Shown piece after piece: positions 11,494 through 26,718 of a stretch of DNA of 32,000 nucleotides. The stretch lies in NCBI GenBank assembly GCA_039033955.1, contig JBCCBQ010000001.1, positions 120,190-152,189 of the forward strand, written 5' to 3'. Origin of the DNA: Pseudomonadota bacterium (lineage in GTDB: Bacteria > Pseudomonadota > Alphaproteobacteria > Caulobacterales > Hyphomonadaceae). Both the position numbers and the translations under genes were made by a program. Below the pieces are notes generated by a model that was given only the letters and a program-made list of their open reading frames with translations, was not told the origin of the DNA and searched no databases. Positions within the stretch are counted from its first letter, which is position 1. Each line of letters opens with the position of its first letter.

Positions 11494-13581
11494 GTGCGCA
11501 GATATCTAATCATAATCTTTCTAGGGGCTTTGGCACTGTTCCTGTCTGCTTGCGGCCGGGGCGAAACCTCAGAGAAACGCGAATTGGCTGTGGAGAGCAC
11601 TGACGTCGCTGCAGTCCCAACCGAGCCACTCATAAAGCCATGGGGCTATCCTCTTGACGCGTTCGACCGATCGACGCGTCCGGGCGATGACTTCTTCATT
11701 TATGCGAATGGCGGCTGGCTGGCATCGGCGACAATCCCGTCCGACAGTTCGGGAACGGGTTTCTCTGTAGATATGCGCAACCGCACGCGCGATCGCCTGG
11801 CAAATATTATATCCGACATTGAGACAGGGTACGCGGCAAAGGGAACGCCAGAGCAGAGAATTCGCGATCTCTATAAAAGCTTCATGGATGAGGCACGTAT
11901 TGAAATAGCGACGCTGACGCCCTTCGAGGAACACCTTGATCGCTTGAAACGAGCGGAGACGCACGAAGATATCGCGGCCGCGATGGCGGACCCGGAAATG
12001 GGAATTGCATCCATCTTTGAGGCGGGTGTGGGCATCAACCCGAAACAGCCCAAGGAACACATTCTGCGTATCGGTCATGGCAGGCTCGGTTTGCCAGACC
12101 GAACTTATTATCTTCTGGAAAGTCGCCGACTTGAGGCAATACGCTCAGAGTATATCGACCACATAGACATTGTGCTGACCTTATTGGGTGAGCAGGGCAC
12201 CGGTCCACGCGCCGAGGCCGTATTCGAACTAGAGCTTGAAATGGCAAAGCGCCATTGGACGAGAGCAGACAGGCGCAATGCAGAACTAACGTTTAACCCA
12301 ATGACCGTGGCGGAGCTCGAAGAGTTCGCTCCCGGCTTCCCCTGGTCATCCATGTTGGGCGTCGAAGGGATGTCGGCGACAACAAATGTGCTTGTGCGCG
12401 AAAAGTCCGCATTCCCCGAACTCGCCAACTTGTTTGAAGACACCCCGATCAGTCAATGGCGCGACTATTCGCTGTTTCACTACGTAATGGCCAATGCGGT
12501 TTATATGCCGCGGAAATTCTCGGACCCAAGCTTCGGCTTCTTTCGACGGACCCTGCATGGTCAAGTCCAGCCACGGGCACGCCGATGGCGAGCGATCAGT
12601 TTCGTCGACAATCGCCTCGGCCAGGAAATTGGCAAGCTCTATGTCGACCGCTACTTCCCGGAAGACTCCAAACGTCAGATGGCGGAAATATTCCAGAATG
12701 TGAAGTCGGCATATCGAAACCGCATCGAAGGGTTGGACTGGATGACTGCTGAAACCAAGCAGTCAGCGCTGGCCAAGCTGGACGCTATGACGGGGCAGAT
12801 TGGGTATCCTGAAATTTGGCGCGACTATTCCGGAGTAGAGATAAGTGCGTACGATTTGTTTGGGAATGTACGTCGCCTGCGCGCGGCCGATCATGCTTTC
12901 AACCTCGGTAAGCTGGGTGAGCCGGTGGAACAGGGCGAGTGGTCGAGAAATCCGCAAACGGTGAATGCCTCCTACAGCCGGACGCGCAATGAGGCTTTTA
13001 TTCCGGCAGGCTACATTCAGTCCCCCATGTTTGATCCCAATGCCGACCCTGCCTTGAACTATGGGGCCATTGGGTCGGTTGTTGGTCACGAGATTGCACA
13101 CGGATTCGACGATCAGGGTTCCCGATATGGCGCCGATGGACGGCTTGAGGACTGGTGGACACCAGAGGATCGCGCAGCTTTCGATGAACAGGGTGAACGT
13201 TTAGTGGCTCAATTTAACACCTATGAGCCATTGCCCGGCCTCAGAGTGAATGGACGCCAGACATTGGGCGAGAATATTGGCGATTTGGCAGGCGTTACGG
13301 TCGCATACCATGCCTACGTTCTTTCATTGGATGGTCAGAAGGCTCCTGAGATTGACGGGTTCAGCGGTGAACAACGTTTCTTTCTCGGCCGCGCGCAGGC
13401 CCGTCGTTACAAGCGAACAGAGCAGGGCCTTCGGAAGCGTATTCTCTCACAAGTCCACAGTCCGATGGCGTTGAGGGTCAATGGCATCGTTCGAAATATG
13501 GATGAGTGGTACGAAGCTTTCGATATCCAGCCGGACGATGAGTTATACTTAGCACCGGAAGACCGCATCAGGATCTGGTAG
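11494..13581 (+). CDS. M13 family zinc metallopeptidase (PepO/endothelin-converting-enzyme-like), lipoprotein
   Basis: 695 aa with a GTG start. The lipobox is MRRYLIIIFLGALALFLSAC. Zinc motif VVGHEIAHGFDD, downstream GENIGDLAG, and C-terminal ...RIW. Confidence 0.9.
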   Translation: MRRYLIIIFLGALALFLSACGRGETSEKRELAVESTDVAAVPTEPLIKPWGYPLDAFDRSTRPGDDFFIYANGGWLASATIPSDSSGTGFSVDMRNRTRDRLANIISDIETGYAAKGTPEQRIRDLYKSFMDEARIEIATLTPFEEHLDRLKRAETHEDIAAAMADPEMGIASIFEAGVGINPKQPKEHILRIGHGRLGLPDRTYYLLESRRLEAIRSEYIDHIDIVLTLLGEQGTGPRAEAVFELELEMAKRHWTRADRRNAELTFNPMTVAELEEFAPGFPWSSMLGVEGMSATTNVLVREKSAFPELANLFEDTPISQWRDYSLFHYVMANAVYMPRKFSDPSFGFFRRTLHGQVQPRARRWRAISFVDNRLGQEIGKLYVDRYFPEDSKRQMAEIFQNVKSAYRNRIEGLDWMTAETKQSALAKLDAMTGQIGYPEIWRDYSGVEISAYDLFGNVRRLRAADHAFNLGKLGEPVEQGEWSRNPQTVNASYSRTRNEAFIPAGYIQSPMFDPNADPALNYGAIGSVVGHEIAHGFDDQGSRYGADGRLEDWWTPEDRAAFDEQGERLVAQFNTYEPLPGLRVNGRQTLGENIGDLAGVTVAYHAYVLSLDGQKAPEIDGFSGEQRFFLGRAQARRYKRTEQGLRKRILSQVHSPMALRVNGIVRNMDEWYEAFDIQPDDELYLAPEDRIRIW

Positions 13582-19641: not shown

Positions 19642-20343
19642 CTAGGCAGCTTGCGCTTCTTTCTTCGGTTTAGGGTCACGAAGGACATACCCCCGACCCC
19701 AAACGGTTTCGATATGGTGTTCACCACCCGTGGCTTGAGCCAGCTTCTTGCGCAGCTTGCAGATAAACACGTCAATAATCTTGAGCTCTGGTTCGTCCAT
19801 GCCGCCATAGAGGTGGTTGAGAAACATCTCTTTGGTCAGTGTCGTACCCTTCCGAAGGGAAAGAAGCTCGAACATTTGATATTCTTTGCCGGTGAGGTGG
19901 ACGCGATCATTATCAACTTCGACCGTTTTGGCGTCGAGATTGACGAGAATATCGCCGGTTCGAATGACGCTTTCAGCGTGCCCTTTGGAGCGACGAACGA
20001 TTGCTGTAATCCGAGCGATCAACTCGTCTTTGTTAAAGGGTTTGGTGAGGTAGTCGTCAGCGCCGTAACCGAGCGTCTTAACTTTTGCTTCGATGTCCGG
20101 GTTACCGGAGAGGATCAGGACGGGTGTATTGATCCTTGCCATCCGGAGCTGCTTCAGCACGTCATATCCCGAGATATCCGGCAAGGACAGATCGAGGATA
20201 ATGATGTCGTACTCGTAGACTTTACCGAGATCGACACCCTCTTCACCGAGATCCGTGGTGTAGATGTTGAAACCGGCAGCCTTCAGCATCAGTTCTATAC
20301 TGCGGGCGACGGCGGTATCGTCTTCAATCAGAAGGACGCGCAT
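19642..20343 (-). CDS. ctrA: Cell-cycle response regulator CtrA (OmpR family)
   Basis: 233 aa and nearly collinear with Caulobacter CtrA as I recall it. It reads MRVLLIEDD...[20 protein letters not shown]...LDL.LPD.SG.DVL..LR.A.INTP..ILSG...[53 protein letters not shown]...[16 protein letters not shown]. Confidence 0.9.
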
Positions 20344-20386: not shown

Positions 20387-20536
20387 CCAAACGTTAAGAG
20401 ACCACACTTTAAGAAAGGTTAACGGCAGTACCAATTCGTAAATACGCACTCACACCATAACGTTGGACGTCCGTGAGAGAGAGTTGATTTGTTCCAGAGA
20501 TCAAGTTCCGATGTTATAGTAATAACAGGTTTGGCC

Positions 20537-22657
20537 ATGAGGATACTGACGATATCACCTCTACAAATCGCTGCTATCATTGGAGCGATGCTCGCTTGGG
20601 CGAGCATTGGAGCAGTGGCCGAAGACCTGAATCGAGCTGATAGCTTTACCCAGGATAGCTCTCTGAATGCGACCGCCATGAGGGGTATCGACCAAGACGG
20701 GGTTGACTTCGCCACTGATCCTGGAGCCGACTTTTACCGATACGCAAATGGCCGTTGGCATGACACCGCCAGGATCGAAGATGGTGATTGGCAGGCGGGA
20801 ACCTCCCAATCCGTTCGAAACCGCGTTGAGCGCCGGACCTCTGAAATTGTCCGCGAGTTGCGCCGCGACCGGTGGCCAGGGAGCAGCAACGAAGGGAAGT
20901 TTCTGACGATTTACAACAACTACAACAATCGGGAGGCAAGACGTCAGGCGGGGCTGCGCCCTATCAGGCCGTTTATAGAGTTGATTGGCCGGGCAGAGAC
21001 CCATGATGATGTGGCGTCCCTCTTGGGAAGTTACAATCTGGATGCAGGTGGGCTTTTCAAGGTCGCGCTTCGCCTCGATCCCATCCAAGGGGCTGGCTAT
21101 GTCGCATCGATAGAACCCGCTGACCTGCTTTTGCAGTCTCAGGCGCTGTATCTCCGGCAAGACAGTCTGGCGATTGATCAACGCAACGAGTCCCGAAGGC
21201 TGCTCGCCCGGTTACTTCGCCGAGTGGGACGCAATTCCCGAGCAGAAAGTCGGGTCGATGCGGTCTTTGAACTTGAGCACCGCCTTGCTGAGCTTTATCC
21301 AGAGCCTGTCGCTGCCCGACAACCTATAATCGCGGAAAATGTGTTCGGTATCGCGTCGCTCGAAACAACCTTCCCGGAATTCCCGTGGCGGCGTTTTCTC
21401 GCAGCCAGAGGTGTCGTCAAAGATACCATTATTCAAGTTCCGCCACGCGATCAGATTCCAGAACTCATCGCTCTATTTCACGCCACTCCGGTAAGTGTAT
21501 GGCGAGACTACATGACCCTTCGACTTATCCTGTCGTATGGCAGTTATCTGGACGAGGGGACTGACCGTCTGGTTGCAGAGTTCGATGCCGCACGCAGCGG
21601 CATTGCATATACGCCGCTGAAGCGACGTGAACGTGCGTGGAGGGTCGCGGCAGACATTTTGCCGGACCCAATTGGTCGAGCCTATGTGGAGCAATACCTG
21701 ACGGACACGACCGTTGTCGAAGTGCACAAAATCGTGGACTGGACCCTGCTTGCTTATCGCGAGCGCATCGAAGCGGCAGATTGGCTGGAGGCTGAAACTC
21801 GCCGACGCGCCATCGAAAAACTGGACGCCATCACAGTGGTCGTGGGTGAACCGCCCGGCTGGAACAATTTCGATTTTTTCACCCCAATAAGAGGAAGTCT
21901 GTTTTCCAACGCCTATTCCCGCCAGCAATTGCGTCATAGATCGGCTTTGGCGCGATTGCTGTCATCTACGGAGGATGAAGAAGATCCGTCGACACCGTCG
22001 AAGAACCCACTTGATGATATCTTCTTCTCACCAATCAGCGTGGGCGCTTACTACTTACCCACGCTGAATTCCATTGTTGTTCCAGCGGCATACCTTCAGG
22101 CCCCATACTATGATCCGTCCGCAAGCTTGGCGGTTAACTTCGGTGCGCTCGGCACCACGATCGGACACGAACTGGGCCATGCGTTCGATGACCAGGGGGC
22201 GAGGCGTGGCCCAGACGGCCAAATCACAGACTGGTGGAGTGCTAAGGATAACGAACAGTTTGTTGCCAAGGGGGACAAGCTGTCTCGGCACCTGTCAGCA
22301 TTTGAGGCGGCACCTGGAATTCCGTTGAACACAGCACTGACGCTTGGAGAGAACCTCAGTGATCTGGTTGGCGTTGAAATCGCATTCCGCGCCATGGAGT
22401 TAGCCCATCACGCGGGTGGGGGAGAAGGGGTAGCCAAAGAAGATGCCCAGGCGTTTTTCATAAGCTATGCTCAGAAAAGAAGGGCGAAACGGCTACCGAC
22501 GATCGAAATCGATTTCGCCTATTCCAATTTGCACAGTCCGCCATCGGTGCGCGTAAACGGCATCCTTCCGCACGTTGATCAATGGTACTCAGCTTTCGAT
22601 GTGTCTGAAGATGACCCCCTATGGGTCGCACCCGAAGATAGGGTCCGCATTTGGTAG
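20537..22657 (+). CDS. M13 family zinc metallopeptidase, secreted (second paralogue)
   Basis: The start was chosen at ATG 20537, giving MRILTISPLQIAAIIGAMLAWASIGAVA, a signal peptide. Zinc motif TIGHELGHAFDD, GENLSDLVG, and C-terminal ...RIW. It is clearly diverged from the 11494-13581 copy. Confidence 0.9.
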   Translation: MRILTISPLQIAAIIGAMLAWASIGAVAEDLNRADSFTQDSSLNATAMRGIDQDGVDFATDPGADFYRYANGRWHDTARIEDGDWQAGTSQSVRNRVERRTSEIVRELRRDRWPGSSNEGKFLTIYNNYNNREARRQAGLRPIRPFIELIGRAETHDDVASLLGSYNLDAGGLFKVALRLDPIQGAGYVASIEPADLLLQSQALYLRQDSLAIDQRNESRRLLARLLRRVGRNSRAESRVDAVFELEHRLAELYPEPVAARQPIIAENVFGIASLETTFPEFPWRRFLAARGVVKDTIIQVPPRDQIPELIALFHATPVSVWRDYMTLRLILSYGSYLDEGTDRLVAEFDAARSGIAYTPLKRRERAWRVAADILPDPIGRAYVEQYLTDTTVVEVHKIVDWTLLAYRERIEAADWLEAETRRRAIEKLDAITVVVGEPPGWNNFDFFTPIRGSLFSNAYSRQQLRHRSALARLLSSTEDEEDPSTPSKNPLDDIFFSPISVGAYYLPTLNSIVVPAAYLQAPYYDPSASLAVNFGALGTTIGHELGHAFDDQGARRGPDGQITDWWSAKDNEQFVAKGDKLSRHLSAFEAAPGIPLNTALTLGENLSDLVGVEIAFRAMELAHHAGGGEGVAKEDAQAFFISYAQKRRAKRLPTIEIDFAYSNLHSPPSVRVNGILPHVDQWYSAFDVSEDDPLWVAPEDRVRIW

Positions 22658-22661
22658 GGCT

Positions 22662-22946
22662 CTAGATCCTTGCCGGTTCGTCAATGATCTCAGTGAGGGT
22701 CACCCCAAGCTCCCCATCTGCAATAACCAGTTTCCCTCGAGCCATCAGCCGGTCGGAAACGTAGATATCAACAGGCTCGTTTGCTCGCCGCTCCAGCGCA
22801 ACAATGTCACCTGAGGCCATGTTTTGAAGGTCTTCAATTGGCATGCGTGCCTCGCCGAGTACCACGTCGACCTGAACGGGCACGTCCATCAGTCTTTGAG
22901 CAAGGGCAGGATTTTCAGCAGAACTCATGGCGAATAAGTTTGGCAA
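22662..22946 (-). CDS. fliN: Flagellar motor switch protein FliN (SpoA domain)
   Basis: 88-94 aa (TTG 22946 or ATG 22928). It reads VPVQVDVVLGEARMPIEDLQNMASGDIVALERRANEPVDIYVSDRLMARGKLVIADGELGVTLTEI, the canonical FliN C-terminal domain. Confidence 0.85.
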   Translation of the reverse strand: MPNLFAMSSAENPALAQRLMDVPVQVDVVLGEARMPIEDLQNMASGDIVALERRANEPVDIYVSDRLMARGKLVIADGELGVTLTEIIDEPARI

Positions 22947-22953
22947 GAAAGTG

Positions 22954-23346
22954 TTAACGATCTGTCGATGCAGCCGATGGATCGAACAGATCCCCCTGGC
23001 CGTCGACGATGAGCTGGCATGCAGAAGCCATAAGCGCCCGAGCGCGACTGCGGTCTTCCTCTTCCATTTTTATCCGATCGAGATGGTCGGCGAGCTCCAA
23101 AAGATGTTTCAGCGCCGCTTTTAGTTCGATAGCCGTTTTTTCTAATCTTTCCAGGGTTTTGGCGTTTTGGTGCGTATGCTCCTGGATCATCTCGACGCGA
23201 GCGTTTTCCAGAAGTCGGGACAGGTCTTGAGCCGTCAAAGATATCACACCACTCGCATCGCCCTGAGGTGCGCTCTCAAAATCCAAAGCACCGAACTTAG
23301 GAGAGAACGTGAAAGCCCGAATGGATTGGACGGTCCGGCGTGTCAC
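22954..23346 (-). CDS. Hypothetical coiled-coil protein in the flbE/fliH position of the operon
   Basis: 130 aa. Its GTG start overlaps the fliG stop (GTGA). The N-terminus is AFTFSPKFGALDF and a long helical, charged segment follows (LSRLLENARVEM...LERLEKTAIELKAALKHLLELADHLDRIKMEEEDR). The assignment is positional only. Confidence 0.4.
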   Translation of the reverse strand: MTRRTVQSIRAFTFSPKFGALDFESAPQGDASGVISLTAQDLSRLLENARVEMIQEHTHQNAKTLERLEKTAIELKAALKHLLELADHLDRIKMEEEDRSRARALMASACQLIVDGQGDLFDPSAASTDR

Positions 23347-24263
23347 TCAACAATGTCCTCTGCTCCTGACGAACCGGGCAGAATGTCTCCACTAGCAATG
23401 AGAGCTCTGGCAAGTCGCGTCATATCTGCTCTCGCCGCATCGACCGTTCTTTCGTCAATCTCTCCAAGCACGGCGATCTCCTCTTTGAGAACGTCGCGTG
23501 CGCGGTTGGTCATGTTTTTGTAGATGGTGGTTGATACCGGATTGTCCGTTCCGACCATCGCTATCATGAGGGTCTTACGCTCTAACCTTGAGAGGAGAGT
23601 CTGAATGCCGGCAGGGGGAAGTTTCGCAAGGTCCTCAAACCCAAACATCAGTGTTTGAATTCTGCGGCCTGCTTCGGGCTCCGCCGTCTGCAGCGCGGCC
23701 AAGAGCGTCTTGCTCGCGTCGGGGTCTAATTCATCGAAGATCCGCGCAAGATTATTTTCCTGCAGCTCTGTATGGCCATCTAGACGTCGGACACGGTCTT
23801 CCAATGCCTGCTCGATGGCGTCCATCGCTTCCACATGAGGTGGATTCATATGAAGCATTCTCTGAAGAACATCGATGGCAACAAGTGATGGTAGGTGCCG
23901 TACGATTTCAGCTGATTGCGTTGGTGGAAGCCGGCCAAGAACAAGGGCCACCAATTGTGGATGTTCATCGCTGAGCACCGACAACACCTTATCCCGCGAC
24001 ACAGACCCCAGTTTCTCCCAAACCGATGACGCTGGTTTTACACGCGCGGTCGGGTTCAATTCGCTTAATAGAGCACTGGCAGCGCGTTCCTCATCCGCAG
24101 CGTCCTCCGGCAGTGTGTCGAGTACATCACTGATCTGTTTAGCATATTCTGGCGGCAGTTCGGCCCAGACCTCGGCTGCGCGGGGTCCGAGAGCACGAAG
24201 GAGGCGTGCTGAACGGAGTATGCCATCAGCCGTCGCTTTCGTGCTGGGCGCGGGCAGTGCCAT
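23343..24263 (-). CDS. fliG: Flagellar motor switch protein FliG (short, 306 aa)
   Basis: EHPQ motif (LSDEHPQLVALVL), MFxF motif (LMFGFEDLAKL), and the C-terminal pattern YKNMTNRARDVLKEEI...AARADMTRLARALIASGDI, as in the FliG torque domain. The start ATG overlaps the upstream stop (TGATG). Confidence 0.85.
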   Translation of the reverse strand: MALPAPSTKATADGILRSARLLRALGPRAAEVWAELPPEYAKQISDVLDTLPEDAADEERAASALLSELNPTARVKPASSVWEKLGSVSRDKVLSVLSDEHPQLVALVLGRLPPTQSAEIVRHLPSLVAIDVLQRMLHMNPPHVEAMDAIEQALEDRVRRLDGHTELQENNLARIFDELDPDASKTLLAALQTAEPEAGRRIQTLMFGFEDLAKLPPAGIQTLLSRLERKTLMIAMVGTDNPVSTTIYKNMTNRARDVLKEEIAVLGEIDERTVDAARADMTRLARALIASGDILPGSSGAEDIVE

Positions 24264-24910
24264 CAGCGATTGTCCTCATCACGTAGCCAGCCGGTGATAA
24301 TCTCGGCCGTGCGAGCGGGTTGATGCTCGGCGAACTCAGCGGCCTTATCGAGGGAAGATGCCGCCTTTGCAAGCGTCGTTGGCGGTGTGTGGGGGCGAGA
24401 AATGACATCGTTTGCAGGAACTGGATCAGCAACCGGTGCAACGAGCCTACGCCTCTGAACCGCTACGAAGAGAAGCCCTGACAACACAGATATTGCAAAA
24501 AGTGTCAGACATTCGGCGAAGAACAAAAATCCCGCTGCTCCGATCGAGCGCGGAGTGAAGTTCGCTTCCGTCACTGAAACGGCTCTACCTGGGGCCATGG
24601 ATTGGATGATGGCTGTAATCTGCTTGGCGTCGCTTGCCGTTTCAGCCGTCTGTCGATCTGAGTTTAGCAGAACAACGATATCGCCGGTTCCAGTGTCACC
24701 AATGCGTACATTGCCCTCTCCAACGAGGGTTTCCGCAAGCGATATGTAGGGGGAATTTGTTTTGGACGCACTCGGGCTTGGGTCTCCTGCGACCACCCGA
24801 AGCACGAGTGCAACGACCGACAGGACAAAAAGGATGCCCGTGATCCACGCCAGGGTTCCTTCGGTTCGTTCAAGACTTGAAGGCACGGCAAAACTCCCAG
24901 CAACGGCCAA
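24263..24910 (-). CDS. Miniature FliF-like membrane protein (TM1, single RBM-like periplasmic domain, TM2, FliG-binding-like C-terminal tail)
   Basis: The longest ORF is 215 aa with a TTG start at 24910. The more likely start is GTG 24886, which sits behind GGGAG with a 7-nt spacer and gives 207 aa. It occupies the fliF slot directly upstream of fliG. The TM segments are LAWITGILFVLSVVALVLRVV and IGAAGFLFFAECLTLFAISVLSGLLFVAV. The periplasmic part LAETL..GNVRI..DIVVLLNSD..DAKQITAIIQSMAPG..VSVTE resembles the YscJ/FliF ring-building motif. The tail ...HQPARTAEIITGWLRDEDNR resembles the FliF C-terminus. Confidence 0.55.
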   Translation of the reverse strand: MAVAGSFAVPSSLERTEGTLAWITGILFVLSVVALVLRVVAGDPSPSASKTNSPYISLAETLVGEGNVRIGDTGTGDIVVLLNSDRQTAETASDAKQITAIIQSMAPGRAVSVTEANFTPRSIGAAGFLFFAECLTLFAISVLSGLLFVAVQRRRLVAPVADPVPANDVISRPHTPPTTLAKAASSLDKAAEFAEHQPARTAEIITGWLRDEDNR

Positions 24911-24945
24911 ACAGGACCGCGGCTTTGGAGTTTACGTGCGTCGTC

Positions 24946-24962
24946 GTAAACGGCGCTTTAAC
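24946..24962 (-). promoter_or_regulatory. Near-consensus CtrA box (TTAA-N7-TTTAC on the gene strand) upstream of the fliF-like operon
   Basis: The minus strand reads G-TTAA(24961-24958)-AGCGCCG-TTTA(24950-24947)-C, an 8/9 match to TTAA-N7-TTAAC. It lies in the 69-bp sciP/fliF-like spacer, 36 bp (TTG start) or 60 bp (GTG start) upstream of the coding start. Confidence 0.3.
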
Positions 24963-24979
24963 CGAAGGCAGATCGCCGT

Positions 24980-25255
24980 CTAGATGCGGCGATACTGCTG
25001 TATACGGGTCGCGCGAAGGCCTTTGGCACCGTGACTTGTGTAAAGACGGACCCAGCCGGAGAATTCTTCATCCGACAGCCCATAGCGTTCACACGCATCT
25101 TCCTGGGAGAGGAGACCTCCCCTTACAGCCGCGACGACTTCTGCCTTGCGGCGTGTCACCCAGCGTTTGGTGCCAGGTGCCGGAAGGTCTTCGAGTGTCA
25201 AAGGACGCCCATTTGGCCCCGAAACACTCACTACGAAAGCATTCTGCTCACTCAT
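24980..25255 (-). CDS. sciP: SciP-like small transcriptional regulator (DUF1153)
   Basis: 91 aa from ATG 25255, behind a GAGGTGG Shine-Dalgarno; the longest ORF starts at GTG 25264. PLTLEDLP..TKRWVTRRKAEVVAAVRGGLLSQEDACERYGLS.EEF..W.....HG..GLRATRIQQYR closely follows the Caulobacter SciP/DUF1153 pattern as I recall it. Confidence 0.8.
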   Translation of the reverse strand: MSEQNAFVVSVSGPNGRPLTLEDLPAPGTKRWVTRRKAEVVAAVRGGLLSQEDACERYGLSDEEFSGWVRLYTSHGAKGLRATRIQQYRRI

Positions 25256-25497
25256 TTTGTCCACCTCATAAGCAAGGGTCGTTCTGTCCCTCGTGCTATG
25301 AACACTACAGGATGCGACTTAAGGGGACGCTCAGCGGGATCGATCAGTTTTGATGAAAATTCGATATGTCTTGGCGCGGCATGTTTGCACTTCGTTGGCA
25401 AAGCTGTGCCGGATTGGCGCACTTAATGTCGATTCTGCGCGAACCTTGCGAAACGGCCAAGGAAACCTTTGCAAATGGTTTCTGCCTGTTTTGACGT

Positions 25498-26718
25498 TCA
25501 GGTAGCGTCAACCATATACGCGCTAATTGTCCGCGTGATGAAACCGCCACCAAGCACACGGCTGGGTTCCGCAGAATCATAGAGGACGCAGGCCTGACCA
25601 GGTGCGACGCCTTCTTCAGCTTCATCGAAGCGAACGACAATCTCATCCTGCTCCATCGAAAGCCGTCCGGGCAAAGGCTCTCGCGTCGATCGTACCCGAG
25701 CCAGAACCTGTAGTTCGGCGCTCGCAGCGTCCGAAATCTCACCAGAGCCAAGCCAGTTTAATTCGCCAAGGGTCAACCCAGCTGTAAGAAGGGCCTCCCG
25801 CGGACCGACATAAACGCGGCGCTCCCGGGCATCGATCTTCACAACGAAAAGCGGTTCTCCTGTCGCCACACCAAGCCCACGCCTTTGGCCGATTGTGTAG
25901 TTTATGACACCCCTATGCTCGCCAAGTACACGTCCGTCGAGATGAACGATCTCACCGCCGCGGCCTGCGCCTGGACGGATCGTTTCGACCACTTTTGCGT
26001 AAGAGCCTTCAGGGACGAAACAGATGTCCTGGCTATCGGGTTTGGCGGCCACAGGCAGATTGTAAGAGTCCGCGAGCTCACGAACCTCGGTTTTCGGTAA
26101 GCTTCCGAGCGGAAAGCGCAGATAGTCGAGTTGCTCAGGTGTCGTCGCGAATAGAAAGTAGGACTGATCGCGGCTGTCATCATGCGCTCTGTGGAGTTCC
26201 GCGCCTGCCGAACCGACCTCGCGCCGAATATAGTGACCGGTCGCAAGGCAATCGGCACCGAGATCTTTTGCCGTGGCCAGGAGGTCAGCGAACTTTACGG
26301 ACTGATTGCACCGGATGCACGGGACTGGGGTTGAACCTGAGAGATAGGTATCCGCGAAATCCTCCATGACTTGCTCGCGGAAGCGGTTTTCGTAGTCCAG
26401 AACATAGTGCGGAATGCCGATCTGATCCGCGACATTGCGGGCGTCGTGAATATCCTGACCGGCGCAGCATGCGCCTTTCTTCTGGATCGCTGCCCCATGG
26501 TCGTAGAGTTGAAGCGTAATGCCGACGACGTCGTAGCCCTGATCTGCAAGAAGCGCCGCCACAACCGAAGAGTCCACACCACCAGACATGGCTGCAACAA
26601 CCCTCGTTTCGGATGGTGCTTTGTCAAACCCAAGAGAATTAAGCCCGCCGGTATGGGCAGGGGAGTGGTCGGTCACTTGTCTTGTCTCCAACGGGGTCAA
26701 GGTCCCGTGCAGCAGCAA
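25498..26718 (-). CDS. mnmA: tRNA 2-thiouridine(34) synthase
   Basis: PP-loop [27 protein letters not shown] and ATGHY motifs. The true start may be an internal TTG or GTG about 30-40 nt downstream of 26718. Confidence 0.9.

Follow-up and report, generated by a model that had tools for sequence, protein, structure and literature searches.

A reduced counterpart of the flagellar fliF operon core lies beside sciP, the gene for the CtrA inhibitor, in a 32,000-nucleotide (nt) stretch of DNA from a Pseudomonadota bacterium of the Hyphomonadaceae (GenBank assembly GCA_039033955.1, contig JBCCBQ010000001.1, positions 120,190 to 152,189 of the forward strand). We refer to this whole stretch as the window and to the four minus-strand genes next to sciP as the module. 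The module encodes a miniature FliF, a FliG paralog, a small protein in the slot usually held by FlbE/FliH (protein X) and a FliN paralog. Our favoured account, to which we give somewhat better than even chances as a whole, is that the module is an ancient, maintained paralog of the fliF operon core, conserved in Hyphomonadaceae-like alphaproteobacteria, and that its products form a FliG/FliN ring that is anchored in the membrane and has no export apparatus; a tie to flagellar placement or the cell cycle is our best guess at its use. In window coordinates, sciP, the site upstream of the module and the four genes are:

24980–25264, minus strand: sciP, CtrA inhibitor, 94 amino acids (aa); NCBIfam NF051866 (CtrAInhibSciP) at 126.4 bits, cutoff 100.

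24947–24961, minus strand: CtrA-box-like site TTAAAGCGCCGTTTA (TTAA-N7-TTTA), 61–75 nt upstream of the miniature FliF start.

24263–24886, minus strand: miniature FliF, a protein with two transmembrane (TM) helices, 207 aa from GTG 24886.

23343–24263, minus strand: FliG paralog, 306 aa, with Pfam domains FliG_M and FliG_C.

22954–23346, minus strand: protein X, in the FlbE/FliH slot, 130 aa, with no Pfam family.

22662–22928, minus strand: FliN paralog, 88 aa from ATG 22928; PF01052.

The four genes are packed with almost no space between them. A first-pass annotation, made from the letters of the window, had described four same-strand open reading frames (ORFs) joined by start/stop overlaps, and the ORF list bears this out. 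At TGATG (24261–24265) the miniature FliF stop and the fliG ATG share one base, and at GTGA (23343–23346) the fliG stop and the GTG start of the 130-aa gene share four. The 7-nt gap that the annotation placed before fliN becomes 25 nt with the likely start at ATG 22928. Longer starts in the ORF list would give 215 aa for the two-TM protein (24263–24910) and 94 aa for the FliN-like protein (22662–22946). The miniature FliF most likely begins at GTG 24886, which has GGGAG 7 nt upstream, and less likely at TTG 24910; the 207-aa product is the same, residue for residue, as NCBI protein P0022 ("hypothetical protein AAF292_00695"). FliN most likely begins at ATG 22928 (88 aa), as in most orthologs, with TTG 22946 (94 aa) as the alternative.

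Profile searches identify the first product as a FliF protein from which much of the periplasmic part is gone. A single miniature FliF sequence finds no match in Pfam or NCBIfam. PF01514 (YscJ_FliF), which covers ring-building motifs 1 and 2 (RBM1 and RBM2), matches neither the window protein nor 21 orthologs, and PF08345 (YscJ_FliF_C) finds 2 of 21 members, at an E of 0.004 that falls short of the family threshold. An exhaustive hidden Markov model (HMM) search over 1.84 billion representatives with the family profile returned 138 clusters of relatives at 50% identity, nearly all 195–240 aa long. The same search also reaches bona fide FliFs, namely P0221 (515 aa, E 3.7e-6), P0227 and P0241, each of which carries both PF01514 and PF08345. 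The name fliF used in the first-pass annotation is therefore not justified by single-sequence Pfam or NCBIfam searches, but the FliF origin that it implied is backed by the profiles.

Domain mapping indicates which parts of FliF are kept. With a 118-member HMM, profile positions 46–74 (…LLEPVVGPGNVRVSV) align to FliF ~239–269, the start of PF08345 and of RBM3, and positions 69–216 align to FliF ~353–523, spanning the end of RBM3, the second TM helix (TM2) and the tail (68 bits for P0241). Salmonella FliF (6scn_A) is matched at E 1.2e-6, with profile positions 82–219 on residues 396–559, and positions 45–71 align weakly to its residues 241–267. No profile segment of the 118-member HMM maps to FliF ~45–235 (RBM1 and RBM2) or to the beta-collar, with Salmonella FliF included in the comparison. 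RBM3 is thus represented by two flanking segments, FliF ~239–269 and ~353–420, and the collar between them is absent. From structures of the membrane–supramembrane ring (MS-ring), we take the aligned segments to be RBM3a and RBM3b, the missing stretch between them to be the beta-collar, and residues ~50–230 to be RBM1 plus RBM2.

The predicted layout that results is compact: a first TM helix (TM1, ~10–36), a periplasmic RBM3 core without beta-collar (~45–110), TM2 (~114–145), a proline-rich linker and a FliG-binding helix (~171–206). Hydropathy peaks at residues 10–36 and 114–145, and an AlphaFold2 (AF2) model has helices at 5–33 and 117–148. Between the two TM helices this model places one alpha-beta-beta-alpha-beta unit, with moderate confidence (predicted local distance difference test, pLDDT, 62.8). 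The family alignment runs through TM1, about 85 periplasmic residues, TM2, the proline-rich linker and a C-terminal AAxxAxxxPxRTAxVIRxW helix. By hhalign that tail aligns with the final 30 residues of a canonical FliF (probability 89.7%, E 1.9e-6), its residues P190 and W200 are invariant or nearly so across the family, and we regard it as a putative FliG-binding helix. On these alignments the protein is best described as a FliF reduced to TM1, RBM3 core, TM2 and FliG-binding tail.

Set against the MS-ring protein of Salmonella (PDB 6scn and 6sd1-5), the miniature FliF shares the arrangement of two TM helices around a periplasmic ring-building motif, and RBM3a, RBM3b, TM2 and the tail align. 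It differs in lacking RBM1 and RBM2, which house the export gate, and the beta-collar, which surrounds the rod, and in giving no single-sequence Pfam FliF match.

Two other internally reduced FliF-like proteins occur in public data. P0235 (341 aa) retains ~60 positions at the start of PF01514 and ~50 at the end of PF08345, plus the tail; in P0239 (294 aa) only the last ~50 positions of PF08345 are matched. Since both are also reduced, internal deletion of FliF may have occurred more than once.

The second gene encodes a clear FliG relative with a shortened front end. Both FliG_M (PF14841, 4.4e-17) and FliG_C (PF01706, 1.6e-28) are matched, and EHPQ at residues 100–103 and MFGF at 206–209 are kept, in line with the motifs first read from the translation. 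EHPQ is invariant across the family, E100, P102, Q103, R254 and E262 are conserved, and in the torque helix R254 and E261/E262 line up with charged residues in the FliG of Thermotoga. The PDB FliG 3hjl matches the paralog at E 4.7e-46. In an hhalign comparison the paralog aligns over its full length to canonical FliG, with ~30 aa deleted in the N domain. On the FliG model TIGR00207 it scores 123.6 bits, below the cutoff of 226.7, and covers model positions 90–337 only; NCBI names it "FliG C-terminal domain-containing protein". Its family is a small set of 302–313-aa proteins from metagenome-assembled genomes (MAGs), and the N-terminal helices are the best-conserved part. These helices and, in the miniature FliF tail, W200 and P190 rank among the best-conserved positions, as would fit a retained contact between the FliF tail and the FliG N domain.

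The FliN paralog is a minimal one, essentially a bare SpoA/FliMN_C domain, with orthologs of 86–88 aa. The full SpoA domain reported at first pass is present, PF01052 being matched over positions 1–73 of 73 at 7.3e-24, and on TIGR02480 the protein reaches 89.5 bits, above the cutoff of 84.05.

Protein X resembles FliH/FlbE in its operon position and an N-terminal F-x-F motif only, and "FliH/FlbE-like without the C-terminal domain" is a positional description of it. Its N-terminus, predicted to be disordered, carries F-x-F-xxx-F with invariant F12, F14 and F18, its C-terminus reads DGQGDLF, and the AF2 model (pLDDT 75.4) is a helical hairpin of residues 39–91 and 96–121. It has 80 homologs of 116–146 aa, all unannotated. 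PF02108 (FliH) is unmatched in the window protein and in 54 homologs, with no FliH C-terminal domain. An hhalign comparison with an FlbE-slot protein reaches a probability of 14.5% and extends no further than the N-terminal 70 residues; a HMMER comparison with one FliH and two FlbE-slot proteins yields nothing significant; and Foldseek of the model against the PDB finds nothing better than E >3.

One X homolog, P0057 (L037:10001–10390), is labelled "K+-sensing histidine kinase KdpD" by JGI, and HisKA is weakly matched by 4 of 54 X homologs (E 0.017). These matches probably reflect mere helical-hairpin similarity. Caulobacter FlbE is said to have once been proposed as a histidine kinase.

The preserved motor features raise a different reading, in which the module FliG and FliN are alternative or extra switch subunits exchanged into a real motor cytoplasmic ring (C-ring), comparable to FliG1/FliG2 of spirochetes, and the miniature FliF co-assembles with, or nucleates, a full-length MS-ring through RBM3–RBM3 contacts. 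The conserved torque-helix charges and the FliM-binding EHPQ of FliG would suit this, as would a FliN above its equivalog-domain cutoff, a retained periplasmic part that is exactly the S-ring-forming RBM3 core, and a module without fliM that may depend on the flagellar FliM. The FliG score far below the equivalog cutoff and the shortened N domain speak against it. We consider this reading unlikely, for these reasons and for others given below.

The block is conserved far beyond the window. We scanned species-representative genomes once with the FliG-like family and obtained 27 loci, 24 of them from Hyphomonadaceae, Hyphomonas or unclassified "Pseudomonadota" MAGs. Across about 24 genomes at species level the order is sciP, miniature FliF (205–244 aa), FliG (302–320), X (114–137) and FliN (86–112). 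The whole block is present in every one of the ~24 loci with enough sequence, and sciP adjoins it in every locus with upstream sequence. Gene overlaps of 1 or 4 bases are kept in nearly all orthologous loci, which argues that they are not due to chance. Two Acetobacteraceae loci from the same scan show a normal fliF (538–550 aa)-fliG-fliN arrangement. Recent horizontal transfer was set aside, given this family-wide synteny and a module GC of 0.54–0.57 that matches the rest of the window.

Purifying selection acts on the module. Between the window and a close strain (L040, dS ~0.08), the four genes differ by 41 synonymous and 15 non-synonymous changes, a dN/dS of ~0.13. Gene by gene, the synonymous and non-synonymous counts are 12 and 1 for the miniature FliF, 17 and 5 for FliG, 7 and 9 for X, and 5 and 0 for FliN, the slowest-evolving module gene. 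Against a second relative, L006, identity is 52% for the miniature FliF, 73% for FliG and 58% for X, compared with 100% for CtrA, 95% for IF-2 and 84% for MnmA; in this pair the three module proteins change faster than the products of neighbouring housekeeping genes. The same spread, 52–73% against 84–100% for neighbours, also tells against the module supplying subunits of a flagellar motor.

These data bear on whether the module is simply decaying. It could be a functionless remnant of the sciP-linked fliF operon, left behind after a second flagellar set took over. The module does sit where the Caulobacter fliF operon sits beside sciP, large internal deletions have removed parts of FliF and the C-terminal domain expected in a FliH-slot protein, flbD and flhA are absent, and the genes evolve faster than their neighbours. 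One broken copy also exists: in L029 (9950–10902, a Hyphomonadaceae MAG, JALEGE010000063.1) one frameshift divides fliG in two, which could be an assembly error or a real lesion. We nonetheless find decay very improbable. Reading frames are intact and constant in length in ~24 species-level genomes, down to 32% FliG identity, dN/dS against the close strain is low, the gene overlaps have been kept, as has a regulatory motif upstream, transcripts of the genes occur in Hyphomonas neptunium, and what looks like a lesion in L009 is only a run of N. The first-pass annotation had argued for a maintained, co-translated operon and had offered, as one of two readings, a locus caught in reductive evolution. 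Family-wide conservation and purifying selection favour a maintained, probably co-translated operon over debris. Ongoing reduction is not supported, since the same reduced architecture occurs in ~24 species-level genomes whose FliG copies are only 32–73% identical to that of the window; the reduction is ancient and stable.

The module parallels the Caulobacter-type fliF operon in order and departs from it in content. As first noted from the window, the gene order mirrors that operon: in Caulobacter, fliF (CC_0905) lies two genes from sciP (CC_0903), both listed in the supplement that also covers H. neptunium (PMC7200025), and the same order is found in L041 and L043. In these two loci it reads fliF (541 aa)-fliG-(204–220 aa)-fliN-flbD-flhA. 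Among the candidates scored, the nearest FliGs outside the family sit in fliF-fliG-flbE-fliN-flbD-flhA operons. Like the Caulobacter class II fliF operon, the module has sciP as neighbour, the first four slots in order, tight coupling and an upstream site of CtrA-box type. Unlike Caulobacter-type operons, it has a FliF of 207 rather than ~540 aa, without RBM1, RBM2 and beta-collar; a slot protein of 130 rather than 204–220 aa, without the C-terminal domain; a FliG ~30 aa shorter in the N domain; and neither flbD nor flhA. In H. neptunium, moreover, the block coexists with a separate full flagellar set.

Control of the operon by CtrA, suggested at first pass, is made plausible by a conserved CtrA-box-like site upstream of the miniature FliF gene. 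Of 24 orthologous loci, 23 have a TTAA-N7-TTTA-type site 51–82 nt ahead of the miniature FliF start. It is a perfect TTAA-N7-TTAA in L011–L013, and the window copy has one mismatch. The intergenic alignment is 37% identical overall, with TTAA, TTT.C and a downstream TA invariant. Within the single window, the count of CtrA-box-like sites is not above chance. On this comparative evidence the site at 24947–24961 is probably part of a class-II-type operon promoter, and we infer that CtrA would bind at the putative box.

In H. neptunium the block appears to live alongside a complete flagellum. There sciP is HNE_1390, followed by HNE_1391 (hypothetical), HNE_1392 ("putative FliG") and HNE_1393 (hypothetical) (PMC7200025). 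HNE_1391–1393 are expressed, and rise 1.5- to 2.1-fold in a divJ mutant (PMC7200025). This cultured, motile bacterium also has a motility island, HNE_0239–0276, with fliL, fliF (0242), fliN (0244), fliP, fliG (0246), motB, fliI and flgB (PMC7200025). The island supplies its own fliF, fliG and fliN, which counts against the module FliG and FliN being switch subunits of that motor. Because the block is expressed and coexists with a complete island, we read the module as a long-standing paralog that has been maintained, not as an orphan relic; in H. neptunium at least, the flagellum beside which it is kept is encoded elsewhere. The first-pass annotation had called the module an orphan. That holds for the window, where no other flagellar gene occurs, but not for H. 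neptunium, whose block, matched by order and annotation, stands beside the full island. It had also allowed that a second fliF, fliG and fliN elsewhere would leave only a degenerate duplicate; the second set exists in H. neptunium, but the duplicate is conserved and expressed, not degenerate.

What follows fliN differs between lineages. In the window, the adjoining genes and the second CtrA-box-like site are:

20489–22657, plus strand: M13 peptidase gene, converging on fliN (Pfam).

20408–20422: CtrA-box-like site TTTAAGAAAGGTTAA, one mismatch, ~65–80 nt upstream of ctrA.

19642–20343, minus strand: ctrA (NCBIfam NF045991, 411 bits).

The fliN stop (22662–22664) lies 4 bp from the stop of the converging peptidase gene (22655–22657). 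As first reported, no terminator hairpin separates them: nothing terminator-like was found in 22400–25600, where shuffled sequences led us to expect 3.3. Synteny stops abruptly at fliN in the window, because the M13 peptidase gene holds the post-fliN position in the window's clade. This break, to which the annotation had drawn attention, is lineage-specific. The peptidase gene follows fliN only in the window, L005–L008, L033 and L040. At least nine relatives (L015, L021–L024, L026, L030, L034–L039) instead have flhF-like and flhG-like genes there, encoding, between fliN and ctrA, a short FlhF-like GTPase of the signal recognition particle type (333 aa) and a MinD/FlhG-like ATPase (278 aa) (e.g. 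L034:12220–14060, L037:10796–12635). On TIGR03499 this FlhF-like protein reaches 69.6 bits, short of the equivalog cutoff for FlhF, 174. Hyphomonas-like loci have a phenylalanine hydroxylase gene at this position.

A further variant of the downstream neighbourhood, the third, is seen in a subgroup of three loci, L014 (4087–4749), L016 (4985–5647) and L018 (11601–12263). In each, a converging response regulator gene on the opposite strand follows fliN directly, and its product is ~27% identical to CtrA.

In other bacteria FlhF acts on FliF and FlhG on C-ring proteins, and the two genes make up a system for flagellar placement and number. Several relatives have similar genes immediately after the module; the window has none. 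A functional link between the module and FlhF/FlhG is a guess from this adjacency, which would also suit module proteins that serve as extra motor subunits.

The window's own clade could be read differently again. Its lineage may have no flagellum, with the module as the only flagellar-type machinery left, serving a non-motility function, for instance as a scaffold at the pole or in the cell cycle; this is the second option of the first-pass annotation. The 32-kb window contains no other flagellar gene (Pfam on the large ORFs, synteny and tblastn on the rest), be it for the export gate (flhA/B, fliPQR), the ATPase (fliI), FliM, the rod, hook and filament or the stator. The M13 peptidase gene replaces flhF/flhG in this clade, purifying selection on the module persists within it, and the CtrA-box-like site is kept. 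On the other side, a contig of at least 545 kb is sampled here by 32 kb, which reveals little about the genome, and the only cultured relative with data, H. neptunium, is motile and has a full flagellar island. We judge this reading to be quite improbable.

Returning to the favoured account, we propose an export-less platform because the kept parts suit a FliG/FliN-carrying membrane ring and the lost parts are those that house the export gate and rod or bind the export ATPase. The RBM3 core would let the miniature FliF oligomerise in the inner membrane, and the FliF tail would recruit the FliG paralog, with FliN and X docking underneath. The product would be an MS/C-ring-like platform unable to house an export gate or rod, and hence not itself a flagellum. 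The operon would probably be expressed from its own CtrA-type promoter, and the platform would probably act beside a separate flagellum or on the cell cycle or polarity, for example in flagellar placement and number with FlhF/FlhG. Of this account, the make-up of the module, its homology and its conservation are shown by the sequences, and ring assembly, CtrA control and the physiological role are the inferred parts. A non-motility role, raised at first pass, is possible.

A bolder version can be put forward only tentatively, and we doubt that it holds in full. Hyphomonadaceae would build a second, export-less "rotor-only" structure under CtrA control, in which a ring of miniature FliF (RBM3 core only) carries a switch-like complex of FliG and FliN. 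This non-flagellar device would work at the pole or in the cell cycle, where it could mark or license the flagellum site with FlhF/FlhG. Because the torque-helix charges are kept, engagement of stators without a filament is conceivable. In the window's lineage the ring might even be the only flagellar-type machinery.

Several observations weigh against the platform proposal. Ring formation by a collar-less RBM3 core is an assumption that it makes; the AF2 model of the miniature FliF is of moderate confidence only, and Foldseek against the PDB gave generic alpha/beta matches at E ≥0.03, none significant, with SpoIIIAH at rank 28. The module has no fliM although its FliG keeps the FliM-binding motif, and tethering FliN to FliG would require a FliM encoded elsewhere or X as a bridge. 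No FliH/FlbE homology for X emerged, Pfam on 54 members, hhalign and HMMER giving nothing significant. The match of HNE_1390–1393 to the block rests on gene order and annotation rather than sequence alignment, and the flagellar content of the source organism is seen in the window only. Regulation in H. neptunium fits less well: HNE_1391–1393 are listed without a CtrA site and are absent from the CtrA regulon tables, and the only nearby CtrA peak from chromatin immunoprecipitation is assigned to sciP, HNE_1390 (PMC7200025).

Partial or duplicated flagellar sets are found in other bacteria. Borrelia has duplicated switch proteins, FliG1 and FliG2, in a bacterium with one flagellar system. The module is similar in being a second, divergent FliG beside a motor FliG, and dissimilar in that one conserved operon, apparently controlled by the cell cycle, joins this FliG to a miniature FliF, a FliN and a protein in the FliH slot. 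Non-flagellated Lysobacter enzymogenes is reported to retain flagellar type III secretion genes (PMC7688988, PMC9927559). As described there, it too keeps a subset of flagellar genes, apparently repurposed, but the subset is the export apparatus, whereas the module consists of rotor and switch parts only, with no export components. No paper describing the module was found in searchable full texts under FliG paralogs in Alphaproteobacteria, HNE_1391-1394, flagellar remnants or Hyphomonadaceae FlhF/FlhG.

If it functions as proposed, the module has implications beyond this family. The FliF RBM3 core and tail, FliG and FliN would form a separable evolutionary unit, long-lived without export gate, rod or FliM, and a natural minimal system for the coupling of MS-ring and C-ring. 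The module would also be a candidate for a missing player that links flagellar placement to the CtrA/SciP cell cycle in stalked budding alphaproteobacteria. The genetically tractable, cultured H. neptunium appears to carry the block as HNE_1391–1394, which makes these ideas directly testable. For annotation, ~140 clusters (50% identity) of ~210-aa "hypothetical" proteins are to be corrected to reduced FliFs.

The remainder of the window holds housekeeping and metabolic genes only, as judged by Pfam on large ORFs and by synteny with relatives. Pfam coverage comprised the large ORFs of 1–16.2 kb and 19.6–25.3 kb and a YcxB-like ORF at 27.2–27.8 kb; genes for RF-1, PrmC, DUF4167, mnmA, rbfA, infB, YlxR and NusA were identified through synteny and tblastn to relatives. 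Scanning the window for Rfam families and tRNAs gave no match. The first-pass identities of sciP and ctrA stand, both exceeding their NCBIfam cutoffs (126 and 411 bits). Autoregulation of ctrA has been reported for H. neptunium and Caulobacter, and the putative box at 20408–20422 upstream of ctrA would fit it. The window also has two M13 peptidase paralogs, at 11494–13581 (plus strand) and 20489–22657 (plus strand), whose C-terminal parts are ~50% identical (tblastn in relatives).

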